Assembly (NCBI GenBank): GCA_965204535.1
Contig: OZ241996.1
Location: 832,001 to 896,000 of the forward strand
Origin: a bacterium
GTDB taxonomy: Bacteria; UBA8248
Reading direction: 5' to 3'
Length of the DNA stretch: 64,000 nucleotides
Shown here: positions 14,137 through 20,724 of the stretch, piece after piece
How the letters are laid out: the number at the start of each line of letters is the position of its first letter
How positions within the stretch are numbered: the stretch's first letter is position 1
Made by a program: the position numbers and the translations under genes
Notes under the pieces: model-generated
Told to the model about the DNA's origin: nothing
The model's database searches: none
Seen by the model: the letters and a program-made list of their open reading frames with translations, nothing else

Positions 14137-14517
14137 ATGATGACAGAAGAGAGCGAACGACCAGATTCCGAAACGTTGACGAAATCGTTATTGGACATTG
14201 CGGTGGAATCGTGGCGTTTCGGCCGACTTTTTGATCGACTGCTCATGAAACTCGATGCAGGTGAACAGGGGAGATATCATAATCATTTCCGCTGGTTTCA
14301 AAAAAAGCTCAAAGATTCTCTCACGGATGCAGGGTTATGGATTGTGAACGTTGAAGGCCAGTCCTTTGATCCGGGAATGGCAGCGACACCACTAAACATT
14401 GAAGAATTTGGATCGGAAGACGCGCTCGTTGTCGACCAGATGCTCGAACCAATAATCATGGGACCGGAAGGCGTCGTCCGGACCGGAATAGTCAAGCTCA
14501 GGAAGGTGGATTTATGA
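14137..14517 (+). CDS. GrpE-like protein (head domain only)
   Basis: EGQSFDPG...VVDQMLEPIIM..GVVRTGIV resembles the GrpE beta domain; overlaps the Hsp70 start. Confidence 0.65.
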   Translation: MMTEESERPDSETLTKSLLDIAVESWRFGRLFDRLLMKLDAGEQGRYHNHFRWFQKKLKDSLTDAGLWIVNVEGQSFDPGMAATPLNIEEFGSEDALVVDQMLEPIIMGPEGVVRTGIVKLRKVDL

Positions 14518-17006
14518 ACAACTACGTGGGTATTGACCTGGGCACTACGAATAGTGCGATCTGCTCGTATGACGGTAATGAAACTCGTATCTGGAAGAGC
14601 ACGGAACAGAACGATGTGACGCCATCCGCGATCTACATTGATCGACGGGGAAACAAATACGTCGGCAAGCGAGCTTACGACACAGCACCTCATAGTCCAG
14701 ACAACGCCGCCACGCTGTTCAAGCGACTGATGGGGACGAGTACGCCCATCAAGCTATCGGCAGTAGACATCGTCATGAGCCCGGAGGAGTGTTCGTCGGA
14801 GATACTTCGAGTGCTTTTCGGCTACTTGCCGGAAGAACTCAGAAATGATGCTGACGTTGGCACTGTTATAACTGTACCTGCAGCATTCAACTTGATGCAG
14901 AAAAACGCCACGATGCAGGCCGCAGAGCTGGCCGGAATCGGTCGAGTCGCGCTGATGCAGGAGCCTGTGGCTGCGATTATGAGCGTCAAGAAAGCGCGCA
15001 ATGCTGATAGTATTTTTGTTGTCTATGACCTCGGCGGCGGTACATTGGATGTTGCTTTGGCGGAAAGTCTCGGGGGAAGGATCAACCTTCTCGCCCAAGG
15101 CGGGATCGCGATGTGCGGGGGAAGGGATTTCGACCGGTTACTCGTCGACAACGTGATCAAGCCGTGGTTGTTTGAAAACTTCGATCTCCCCGAGGACCTG
15201 CCGACAAATCCCATTTATAAGGCCCTGCTCCGACTGGCAGCATGGGCGGCGGAACGCGCAAAGATCGAGTTGTCGGCACGTGAGGAAGCAATCGTCAGCC
15301 TGTCTGAGACGGAAGCACGTGTGCGAGACAAGTCCGGACAGGAGGTTTATATAGACATCCCTGTAGACCGCAGCACGCTAGACCGCCTCATAGAGGAAAA
15401 GATCGAGGAATCCATTGAGGCGACAAGGGATACGCTGGAGAAAGCGGGCTTGAGTCCCCACGACGTTGAGCGCGTTGTTTTCATTGGTGGACCGACCAAC
15501 TACAAGCCATTGCGGGACAAGGTGTCTTTCGAACTCGGGATACCTACGAGCGCAGAAGTCAATCCGATGACGGCCGTTGCCGAAGGCGCCGCAATTTTCG
15601 CGGAGTCGATTGAGTGGAACTCCGAGAATCATAGCAGGAAGAGCAACCGCGGAACGCTCGCGTCGAGCGGTCCGCTTGAGCTGACCTTCAATTACACAGC
15701 GCGCACGCCAGACACGTGTTCGCAGATTGTGGTGCAAGTGGGTGGTAAGGTCATGTCGGGGACCGAGTTCCAGGTAGACAGCTTGGACACCGGTTGGACT
15801 TCCGGCCGAAAGCCCTTGGAAAACGGTGCCGCCATAGACGTGTCGCTTGCGAAGAGTGGGGAGAACACGTTCAAGGTGTTCGTGTTCGACGCAACGGGTG
15901 GTCCATTGACGCTCGAGCAGGACAAGATCGAAATCACTAGGACTGCGGCAACAGTCGACGCTATTCCGGCCTCGCATTCAATTGGAGTCGAAGTGCTGGA
16001 GAAACTTGGAGGTACGGCCACCATTGAATGGCTAGTGCGGGCCGGTGACCTGCTGCCCAAGAAAGGTGCTAAGGTATTCAAAGCTAGCGAATCTCTGAAG
16101 GCCGGGAGTACTCAAGCGCTTAGATTCAATCTCTATGAAGGTGATAGTGAGGAACCGTCCGACAATCGCTTTATTGGACGCTTGAAGATTACCGGCAACG
16201 ACTTCGAAGAAGGGGTCATACCAGCAGGAGGCGACCTCCATTGTGATTACGAAATGCTCGACTCGGGAAACATCGTGCTGGAAGTTTCTGTCCCGAGTAT
16301 TGGTGGGACCTTTCATTCGGGACGGAACTTCTACTCCCGCCAAGAGGGACAGTTCGATTTCAGCAGTGAGGCCGCCCGGGTCATTGAAGAGGGAGAAAAG
16401 ACCCGCCAACGTCTGGATGATTTCGATGAGGTTATAGACGACCCGAAACTCGAGCAAGCACGAAGGAAGCTGAATCCGGCATCGCAACTCGATGAGGACG
16501 AACCAGATATCGAGCGCGCCCAAGAAGCCATGGAAGGTGTAAACGATGCACGCCGCCTTTTAAAACAAGTTCGTGAAGATAATTTGAAGGAAATCAGGCG
16601 GATGGAGCTCAACAGTGCGACCGAGTTCTTTAACGACTGTATCCGCCAATTTGCCCGTACCAGCGAGGAGAATGGGTTCGACAATCTTGTGAGAACCGCT
16701 CAGCGTGCGATCGAACGCAACGACAAGGACTTCGAAAGTTACCTTAATGAACTGAAGGGTAAAAACTTCGGGATCCTCTGGCGACAAGACTGGTTTGTGG
16801 TGAAAAAATTCAAGTGGATGGCTACTTCACCACACCACTTCTCTGACACCGCGCGGTTCAAGGAACTGGTTTCAATGGGCCGAAACGCCCTTCAGGCCGA
16901 TGACATCGACAATCTTCGCCAGATCGTAGGACAACTCTGGCAGATTCAAATCTACACGGGATCGGACACGGACATGCTCGAAATGGCCAACATCATTCGG
17001 GGTTAG
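14514..17006 (+). CDS. atypical Hsp70 family protein (830 aa)
   Basis: GIDLGTTNS, ITVPA, EPVAA, DLGGGTLD and GGRDFD motifs; insertion after the NBD and an extended C-terminus. Confidence 0.95.
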   Translation: MNNYVGIDLGTTNSAICSYDGNETRIWKSTEQNDVTPSAIYIDRRGNKYVGKRAYDTAPHSPDNAATLFKRLMGTSTPIKLSAVDIVMSPEECSSEILRVLFGYLPEELRNDADVGTVITVPAAFNLMQKNATMQAAELAGIGRVALMQEPVAAIMSVKKARNADSIFVVYDLGGGTLDVALAESLGGRINLLAQGGIAMCGGRDFDRLLVDNVIKPWLFENFDLPEDLPTNPIYKALLRLAAWAAERAKIELSAREEAIVSLSETEARVRDKSGQEVYIDIPVDRSTLDRLIEEKIEESIEATRDTLEKAGLSPHDVERVVFIGGPTNYKPLRDKVSFELGIPTSAEVNPMTAVAEGAAIFAESIEWNSENHSRKSNRGTLASSGPLELTFNYTARTPDTCSQIVVQVGGKVMSGTEFQVDSLDTGWTSGRKPLENGAAIDVSLAKSGENTFKVFVFDATGGPLTLEQDKIEITRTAATVDAIPASHSIGVEVLEKLGGTATIEWLVRAGDLLPKKGAKVFKASESLKAGSTQALRFNLYEGDSEEPSDNRFIGRLKITGNDFEEGVIPAGGDLHCDYEMLDSGNIVLEVSVPSIGGTFHSGRNFYSRQEGQFDFSSEAARVIEEGEKTRQRLDDFDEVIDDPKLEQARRKLNPASQLDEDEPDIERAQEAMEGVNDARRLLKQVREDNLKEIRRMELNSATEFFNDCIRQFARTSEENGFDNLVRTAQRAIERNDKDFESYLNELKGKNFGILWRQDWFVVKKFKWMATSPHHFSDTARFKELVSMGRNALQADDIDNLRQIVGQLWQIQIYTGSDTDMLEMANIIRG

Positions 17007-17008
17007 CT

Positions 17009-20071: not shown

Positions 20072-20103
20072 CTGGTACAAAGACGTAGGCTGGTGAGGAT
20101 ACG

Positions 20104-20724
20104 GTGAGCGACGAGAAGGAAAAAAAGGGATTCTCCGGGCTCTCGTCTCTTGTCTCTGACTTAGAGGAGGCTACGTCAGGTAGACAGAGCCAGATAGCAC
20201 AACGTAATACCACGCCGTCCGAGTCGCCTCACCGATCAGACCCCGGATTCGTTGCTTCGGAGTCGTCTCGGACACCAATCTCCGGCTTTTTGGGCACCAA
20301 ATGGTTTTGGAGCATGGTCGGCGTTGGTGTGCTGATATGGCTCTTCAGTGCCTTGCAAGAAGACAGTGGCAGGTCAAGCAACCTACGCACGTTCACCGAG
20401 CCGAGATCAGCGCCGAGCTACACACCGCTTGCTCCGGCATCGACACGGCAGACAGTTCTAGATTTCTCCAAACCTCCAGTTGGACAGTACAACGTGCTTT
20501 CTGTTGCGCAGATACGTTGGTGCCTTCGCGAAGTTATCCAGATTGAAGTGCTCCGACCCATGCCTACCACGAATGCTCAAATTGAAAGGTTCAACGCGGT
20601 GGTTTCGGAATACAACAGTCGTTGCAGGCGTTTTAGGTACAGGCGTGGAGCACTAGAACAGGCACGCCGAGAGGTAGAACAGCAGAGAGCGCAGATCGTC
20701 TCTAACGTGTCGCCGCCATGGTAA
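20104..20724 (+). CDS. single-pass membrane protein, last gene of the Hsp70 operon
   Basis: One TM segment (WFWSMVGVGVLIWLF); C-terminal domain with two Cys. Confidence 0.7.
   Translation: MSDEKEKKGFSGLSSLVSDLEEATSGRQSQIAQRNTTPSESPHRSDPGFVASESSRTPISGFLGTKWFWSMVGVGVLIWLFSALQEDSGRSSNLRTFTEPRSAPSYTPLAPASTRQTVLDFSKPPVGQYNVLSVAQIRWCLREVIQIEVLRPMPTTNAQIERFNAVVSEYNSRCRRFRYRRGALEQARREVEQQRAQIVSNVSPPW

Follow-up and report, generated by a model that had tools for sequence, protein, structure and literature searches.

What would a bacterium with ordinary Hsp70 genes elsewhere in its genome do with a further Hsp70 machine that has its own partners and a membrane anchor? The question is raised by a 6.6-kb cassette of five genes in a 64,000-nucleotide stretch of contig OZ241996.1, which we call the window and number from its first letter. 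The genes, named g1 to g5 in operon order, encode a minimal GrpE-like protein consisting of the head only (g1, 14137..14517, 126 amino acids [aa]), an 830-aa Hsp70 (g2, 14514..17006), a 471-aa protein in which a putative pseudokinase domain is fused to a classic-clade AAA+ ATPase (g3, 17009..18424), a 547-aa adaptor with an HPD-less J-like part, a helical part, and a PH-like part (g4, 18428..20071, GTG start), and a 206-aa protein that is likely a single-pass membrane protein (g5, 20104..20724, GTG start). All five open reading frames (ORFs) lie on the + strand, g1 and g2 overlapping by 4 bp and the gaps that follow measuring 2, 3, and 32 bp; the ORF coordinates and the tight coupling described in the initial annotation of this DNA were confirmed. 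We conclude that the cassette probably encodes an undescribed membrane-tethered chaperone-unfoldase system. That annotation had already proposed a dedicated, nonhousekeeping chaperone/unfoldase with a membrane anchor, and the proposal is supported: the genes are coconserved, the Hsp70 falls in a clade of its own, and the anchor is predicted to dock to the adaptor. The pseudokinase, the PH-like domains, and a peptide tag on g5 go beyond it, as do the tag-adaptor docking model, a check for co-loss of the tag and its groove, and a controlled test of linkage to defense genes.

Conservation and spread of the cassette

Co-occurrence of the five genes, which the initial annotation had named as a check, was assessed in 21 loci obtained from one scan of species-representative genomes and belonging to several phyla. 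All five parts stood together in 15 of these loci, two of the 15 being frameshifted or broken and two more (L024 and L029) ending at contig ends. The g1 gene preceded g2 in 21/21 loci, g3 was found in 18, g4 in 19, and a g5-type gene in 16. All six viral-collection contigs that were found with g4, putative phages, carried the five genes as well, and g4 had no match among 50,697 GenBank phages. The g4 family comprised 1,051 clusters (at 50% identity) at an E value of ≤1e-30, 1,937 at ≤1e-10, and 2,539 at ≤1e-3. The Hsp70s closest to g2, 75 to 84% identical to it, were spread over four phyla (Shimodaira-Hasegawa approximate likelihood ratio test [SH-aLRT] support, 99), and within the genus a true g4 match occurred in 1 of 22 congeners, a second match (E value, 5e-4) being a weak unrelated hit also obtained in genome G000. 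Five of twelve plasmid hits were examined. The cassette was Tn7 cargo in Shewanella, had Zorya genes on one side and BREX genes on the other in Polaromonas, and was carried by a plasmid in Vibrio; both versions from rhizobia had no AAA gene. The Shewanella cassette DNA had no megablast match in Escherichia coli genomes. Decay of the cassette was seen in L014 and L031. The five genes are a conserved mobile unit.

Variants of the cassette were also met. Larger ones, as in L006:19446-23253, have four to six extra conserved accessory genes, among them genes for another tagged membrane protein and for a member of the RDD family. A scan of metagenomes was keyed on a general DnaK motif and therefore returned mostly housekeeping loci, which served as DnaK, DnaJ, and GrpE comparators; 7 of its 80 loci were informative (L032 to L035, L037, L038, and L058). 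In L037:6293-14670, L038, L058, and L033, a wider family appeared in which long Hsp70s of 27 to 30% identity are accompanied by GrpE-like genes and by J-like membrane proteins that lack HPD. Two of these distant loci, L037 and L038, contain a TerB-like gene, and in L033 two membrane proteins share a different N-terminal tag, xFDFLD.

A portable tag predicted to dock to the adaptor

Alignment divided g5 into an N-terminal tag, a disordered linker, a hydrophobic segment (about residues 67 to 85), and a domain with two cysteines, C140 and C174. The peak hydropathy of the segment was moderate (1.54), and g5 is likely a single-pass membrane protein whose two-cysteine domain would be periplasmic. 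On the C-terminal side of the membrane segment, homologues of g5 carry added domains of the peptidoglycan-binding, SH3, OmpA, SLT, or ankyrin type, and we therefore infer that the N terminus of g5 lies inside the cell. These outer domains are hypervariable, and g5 likely monitors the cell wall.

The tag itself (20122..20163, + strand; g5 residues 7 to 20) follows the consensus K-G-F-[SA]-G-L-S-S-L-[VA]-S-D, or GFxGL in short form, with G9 and F10 invariant in 25/25 rows; the genome has a single copy of it. The tag is likewise found at the N terminus of membrane proteins that do not have the periplasmic domain of g5 (L006, L007, L115, and L117), one of them a divergently transcribed SH3 protein. 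Judged by these sequences, the tag is portable, and the membrane proteins that bear it are interchangeable and have outer domains of cell-wall type.

Modeling of the whole of g4 with g5 residues 1 to 34 gave a complex with a score of 0.73, compared to 0.00 for the best of three controls. At least 93% of the contacts were shared between runs, and the partner had a predicted local distance difference test (pLDDT) value of 60 to 61. Of 157 solved pairs, 116 attained this score mark, as did 2 of 215 mismatched pairs, rates that are only rough for self-made alignments. In the predicted interface, g4 helices 168 to 258 form a groove that contacts g5 residues 7 to 18 and 20, and the g5 tag is thus predicted to bind the helical groove of g4; to our knowledge, no complex of like kind has been solved. 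PH domains, which we had expected beforehand to bind the tag, were ruled out as binders, since L027 keeps the tag without a PH domain and in the model the tag lies against the helical body.

A comparison independent of the complex score is consistent with this site. In all five tag-less loci, the predicted groove columns matched the tagged consensus less well than did the rest of the g4 helical body, by -0.09 to -0.19, whereas 21 of 22 tagged loci showed a difference of about zero or a positive one (Mann-Whitney P = 0.001, which is overstated because kin loci are not independent). The comparison did not include L013 and L023, in which no tagged gene could be seen. Two loci, L009 and L011, have dropped the tag and carry g4 fused directly to a membrane segment; L011, a close relative, is among the five tag-less loci with a decayed groove.

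The adaptor g4

In the model of g4 (pLDDT, 91.2), a short hairpin at the N terminus is followed by a helical body and then by a PH-like C terminus. We divide the protein into a J-like hairpin (about residues 1 to 56), a helical body containing the groove predicted for the tag (168 to 258), a PH-like domain (355 to 443), and a second repeat (about 457 to 534). Residues 355 to 443 adopt, in the model, a PH fold: the PH-fold rows returned by VIA had Z scores of 8.1 to 9.0 and root-mean-square deviations (rmsd) of 2.8 to 3.9, with MTMR6 (Z, 9.0; rmsd, 2.8), FERM (Z, 8.4), and the PH domain of Tfb1 (Z, 8.1) among them. The second repeat has the same strand pattern and drew weak tandem-PH rows in Foldseek, and it may be another PH domain. 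With whole g4, Foldseek gave no row at an E value of ≤0.001, and a sequence search of the PDB gave chance rows but no relative.

The HPD motif of J domains was found in 0 of 75 g4 N termini, compared to 37 of 37 DnaJ comparators. Helices stand at the places of J helices II and III in the model but are shorter. The fold searches with whole g4 listed no J-domain row, although a whole-protein search is no test of so small a domain. Among 30 long g4 homologues scanned, one (P0392) has g4 fused behind a degenerate DnaK-like protein with altered catalytic residues, and another (P0404) has it fused before DnaJ_C; these two single fusions lend indirect support to the J-likeness of g4. Zinc ribbons at the N terminus or a GYF_2 domain were found in other homologues of g4.

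The Hsp70 and its GrpE-like partner

The nucleotide-binding domain (NBD) of g2 spans residues 1 to 368 (Pfam HSP70, residues 5 to 364; E value, 9e-54), and its ATPase residues D8, T11, T12, K70, E150, D172, and T177 were invariant in 16/16 homologues, the last four being the equivalents of DnaK K70, E171, D194, and T199. An insert of about 105 residues (372 to 476), which is beta-rich as read from sequence and perhaps Ig-like, separates the NBD from the beta part of the substrate-binding domain (SBD-beta; about 488 to 597), which aligns to DnaK 397 to 494 with an hhalign probability of 94%. The DVLLLD linker was not found in g2; the stretch before the SBD is a degenerate linker, TAATVDAIP (477 to 485). 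A tail of about 215 residues (about 615 to 830), read as helical, completes the protein. All four features of this Hsp70 in the initial annotation, namely, intact ATPase motifs, a missing DVLLLD linker, an insert of about 100 residues, and a long tail, were thus recovered. The position equivalent to DnaK K414 varies among g2 homologues, a changed allosteric position.

In DnaK, R167 hydrogen-bonds the aspartate of the HPD motif (PMC8215388). The corresponding residue of g2, A146, is alanine in 16/16 homologues, so that the loss of HPD in g4 is matched by alanine at the HPD-contacting position of g2. In a quick NBD tree, the cassette Hsp70s stood apart from DnaK, HscA, and HscC on long branches (SH-aLRT, 100), and g2 scored 203 bits against the NCBIfam DnaK model, whose cutoff is 648. 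A search of the ESM Atlas with the C-terminal half of g2 returned only Hsp70 or hypothetical clusters.

Pfam found GrpE in g1 with an E value of only 0.089. Against a 50-row GrpE alignment, g1 reached an hhalign probability of 94.3 (E value, 1e-7) over 109 columns corresponding to GrpE 86 to 196 only, which covers the C-terminal helical bundle and beta head and leaves GrpE 1 to 85, the long N-terminal coiled coil, without a counterpart, as first described. This protein is likely a private nucleotide exchange factor.

The pseudokinase-AAA+ fusion

The AAA domain of g3 (Pfam AAA; E value, 1.5e-27) ends in RxIGF, and its Walker A and B motifs, aromatic pore loop, and arginine finger (second region of homology) are conserved in the 11 rows shown. 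From their sequences, both putative motors, g2 and g3, have intact ATPase motifs. The g3 AAA domain is related to IetA (PADLOC; E value, 5.5e-26; 78 bits versus a cutoff of 510).

The preceding domain (g3 residues 1 to 187; model pLDDT, 88.9) resembles protein kinases in fold. Nearly all Foldseek rows were protein kinases (best E value, 2e-3), the one exception being a baculovirus capsid-cap map entry, and 50 of 50 VIA rows were kinase-fold, with middling Z scores of 5.0 to 7.5 and rmsd mostly of 4 to 6. At the sequence level no kinase match was found, a PDB search giving chance rows only and the ESM Atlas none. A conserved catalytic lysine, HRD aspartate, and DFG were not found in 92 rows, at positions mapped from secondary structure that we take to be those of the kinase motifs; D141 was invariant in 92/92. 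On the strength of two methods that were near-unanimous at modest scores, we call this domain a shrunken pseudokinase with a predicted bilobed kinase fold. In L037, the distant long Hsp70 is followed by a recognizable Pkinase-AAA fusion, whose kinase the g3 N-domain profile did not match.

Setting of the operon in the window

A tyrosine integrase gene lies at 1905-3266 of the window, and on this ground we take the operon block to be, most probably, cargo carried by an integrated mobile element. As the initial annotation had it, the block lies between a toxin-antitoxin and nuclease region upstream (HigBA, 10825-11418, and an SNase gene, 12323-13150) and the relaxase downstream, a TrwC relaxase-helicase (21933..25157, + strand; Pfam TrwC E value, 2.4e-80) that belongs to the carrier element and not to the system. 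The operon is indeed less GC rich (0.533) than the relaxase (0.691), the integrase (0.655), and the genome (0.60 to 0.61), and GC as low occurs in 8% of 691 genome windows; the dip, however, is not specific to the operon, as the block at 6300-14136 is equally low (0.534). The window showed no differences from contigs of three public runs, which represent at most two samples of one study and possibly the same source material, and a copy of about 94% identity in a run from another study spans 13530-20785, stopping just past g5. Among RNA data, no holder of the sequence was listed. In the operon, predicted promoters and terminators were no more numerous than in shuffled sequence, and no CRISPR-like or internal repeat was found.

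Elsewhere in the window, the end of the integrase gene recurs as a decayed copy of about 86% identity, with inverted repeats of about 180 nucleotides (2736-3422 and 9614-10481), which suggests tandem or nested integration. A 774-aa protein with ankyrin repeats, SH3, and short repeats is encoded at 3927-6251. An ORF without a Pfam match (21439-22182) overlaps the start of the relaxase ORF and might, at a guess, be a coupling-protein remnant, and the element backbone carries a gene of the YAcAr SLOG family (26379-27338). About 29 kb downstream, a defense island (49538-61736) holds Septu (PtuAB), an operon for a membrane protein, AdoMetDC, and DUF3326, a type I restriction-modification system, and a GmrSD-like gene.

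Linkage to defense genes

We compared 196 flanking ORFs of at least 140 aa from the 21 loci with 226 ORFs from 20 integrase-centered stretches of 14.6 kb, which were hand-picked rather than random and came from 14 of the same genomes, using PADLOC at an E value of ≤1e-40. Defense neighbors were found at 11 of 21 loci and 7 of 20 controls (P = 0.35) or, once generic hits had been dropped (a helicase, an activator, and a kinase in L012, L122, and L134), at 10 of 21 and 5 of 20 (P = 0.20), in a small sample in which several short cassette loci bias the count against the cassette. The cassette thus lies in mobile, often defense-rich DNA, with no clear enrichment beyond that. Neither the anti-phage role put forward in the initial annotation nor the enrichment in defense islands that it offered as a check is established by these counts. 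The envelope-stress role that it gave as the other possibility is likewise no more than a candidate. PADLOC, the defense-system search that it had also called for, named no system in the cassette, nor did NCBIfam or Pfam, all hits being generic AAA and Hsp70 ones. By PADLOC, WYL regulator genes adjoined g1 in 3 of 27 loci and 0 of 20 controls. Genes for WYL-domain regulators stand just upstream of g1 in L020, L021, L024, and L112. In L017 (16586-22312), the next gene after the cassette encodes Tiamat (TmtA), and a further TmtA fragment lies upstream.

Proposed mechanism and alternatives

These parts could work as follows. An envelope event would be sensed or marked by g5, whose tag is predicted to hold g4; the truncated J-like hairpin of g4 may activate g2 through a private, HPD-independent contact, and g1 would exchange the nucleotide and recycle g2. 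A hexamer of g3, guided by the pseudokinase, might then pull a membrane-embedded client apart or out of the membrane, the candidate clients being a protein used by an invader for entry or the assembly of g5 itself. Our preferred reading, to which we give a little short of an even chance, is that this machine defends the cell against phages or other invaders at the point where the envelope is breached. An extended version is unlikely. It would be bacterial immunity of a new class, wired much as in eukaryotes: interchangeable wall sensors would bear a common cytoplasmic tag, the tag would recruit a PH adaptor along with a pseudokinase-AAA+ protein and an Hsp70 that is orthogonal and independent of HPD, and the phage DNA-entry apparatus would be extracted or dismantled at the inner membrane with neither a nuclease nor a cell-killing effector.

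Several findings weigh against the machine as drawn or against its use in defense. J-likeness of g4 is weak by profile (17 columns; P = 0.0012; hhalign probability, 20%), and global hhalign of g4 1 to 75 to the J domain failed, so that of the HPD-less J-like protein of the initial annotation the missing HPD stands and the J-like call itself is weak; P0392 and P0404 are, moreover, single, unconfirmed metagenomic proteins. The AAA gene is missing from the L009/L010 clade and from L028 and L030 and is thus not obligatory, and L013 and L023 have g1 to g4 with no tagged gene within the locus. As to docking, our prior prediction of PH-tag binding failed, L015 keeps the tag yet has a diverged groove (-0.20), and the loci showing co-loss are related and were scored on a consensus built from the tagged group. 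Defense neighbors were not significantly more frequent than in the integrase control, whether or not generic hits were counted, the nearest recognized systems in the window, Septu and type I restriction-modification, are about 29 kb or more away, and no nuclease, NADase, or recognized pore-forming effector was found among the core genes by PADLOC, NCBIfam, or Pfam.

The absence of an effector domain from the core and the lack of clear enrichment over the control would suit the same tethered machine acting in quality control of the envelope or its membrane proteins, or in a stress response, in the manner of HscC-DjlC: it would refold or extract damaged proteins or counter envelope toxins and travel as mobile fitness cargo. 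Cell-wall-binding outer domains and the TerB-like genes of two distant loci agree with this, as does the suggestion that HscC and DjlB/C are chaperones of transmembrane proteins (PMC8215388). Yet rapid spread between phyla, patchiness, frequent decay, and swapping of outer domains seem to fit conflict systems better, and a private GrpE and AAA+ protein would be costly where DnaK already provides general service; we consider quality control somewhat unlikely. The cassette adjoins a relaxase gene here, lies near traA in L009, occurs on plasmids and in Tn7 cargo, and has cell-wall-facing parts, all of which would suit a machine that serves the mobile element, either in building up or taking apart its transfer apparatus or in keeping related incoming elements out at the envelope. 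Of the 12 Hsp70-bearing plasmids, however, 5 were typed as nonmobilizable, Tn7 has no transfer pore, and linkage to transfer genes was not fixed in the examined loci, which leaves such service a small chance.

The Hsp70 might instead have ceased to unfold proteins and be an ATP-gated signaling switch, with the receptor tag, adaptor, Hsp70, and (pseudo)kinase-AAA protein relaying an envelope signal to unlinked host targets. Such a layout of receptor, PH adaptor, and pseudokinase, the Pkinase-AAA fusion of L037, the degenerate linker, the insert between NBD and SBD, and the variable K414-equivalent position speak for signaling; set against the retained SBD-beta fold, the conserved AAA pore loop, and a core that has no transcription factor, its chance is slighter still. 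A redundant housekeeping DnaK system, which the presence of Hsp70, GrpE-like, J-like, and AAA+ parts might bring to mind, is hardly credible given the separate clade, the loss of HPD and R167, the ordinary Hsp70 genes elsewhere, and the patchy occurrence within the genus. Under the preferred, defensive reading, the cassette would represent a chaperone-powered immune mechanism at the envelope. If the mechanism itself is right, an Hsp70 is driven without the near-universal HPD contact, and a short portable tag aims a chaperone-unfoldase pair at chosen membrane proteins, possibly as an orthogonal tool. The cassette is a complete, clonable example of a system whose adaptor family numbers 1,051 clusters.

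Comparison with known systems

With DnaK-DnaJ-GrpE and ClpB, the cassette shares an Hsp70 with NBD and SBD-beta, a GrpE-fold protein, and J-like and AAA+ partners. It differs in the length of its Hsp70 (830 aa, with insert and long tail), in the missing DVLLLD linker and the replacement of R167 by alanine, in having no HPD and no GrpE coiled coil, and in its predicted membrane tether and its mobility; its AAA protein, unlike ClpB, has a single classic-clade domain joined to a pseudokinase. IetAS, an AAA ATPase with an S8 peptidase, has a related AAA domain, but the match of 78 bits falls far below the cutoff of 510, and the cassette has no peptidase partner. The mitochondrial import motor consists of mtHsp70, the Tim44 tether, Pam18/Pam16, and Mge1 and likewise unites a membrane-tethered Hsp70 with a factor of GrpE type and a J-like protein lacking HPD. 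The likeness is a functional analogy only; the motor depends, in addition, on a J protein with HPD and on a channel, neither of which was seen in the cassette.

Among bacterial systems, HscC-DjlB/DjlC of E. coli is likewise a specialized, sporadic Hsp70 with dedicated membrane-linked J partners and an unclear role, and Mayer (2021) suggests that HscC and DjlB/C are most likely chaperones of transmembrane proteins (PMC8215388). HscC, however, has 550 to 580 aa and is thought to work without GrpE (PMC8215388), whereas the cassette has an 830-aa Hsp70, its own GrpE-like gene, an AAA+ protein, and the tag; BLAST of g1, g3, g4, and g5 against DjlB, DjlC, YbeR, YbeU, and YbeQ gave no match. GAP1-N2 conflict systems also have a private Hsp70 and GrpE in a predicted anti-invader operon (Kaur et al. 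2020, PMC7159879). They are described, mainly from actinobacteria and firmicutes, as comprising TRAFAC GTPases, FNIII proteins, HSP70, GrpE, and FNIII-DnaJ (PMC7159879), but no GTPase or FNIII protein is among the five cassette genes. Hsp70-like domains occur in defense loci in CnuD of type III CoCoNuT systems (PMC11090510) and in EACC1-protease-DnaK fusions (10.1101/2025.11.14.688446), where they are degenerate or lidless and tied to McrB GTPases and nucleases or to proteases. The main text of the former does not mention GrpE or DnaJ, nor does the preprint on the latter mention GrpE. In contrast, the ATPase residues of the cassette Hsp70 are intact and the cassette has no nuclease or protease; McrB GTPase and McrC/HEPN nuclease were not found in it by PADLOC, NCBIfam, or Pfam. 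The full-text literature yielded no description of the cassette, with supplements and most subscription papers outside its scope, so that a mention in a table is possible. In agreement with the initial annotation, which could match the operon to no characterized system, these comparisons indicate that the parts are known folds and that their combination, matching no described system found, is categorically new as an architecture.

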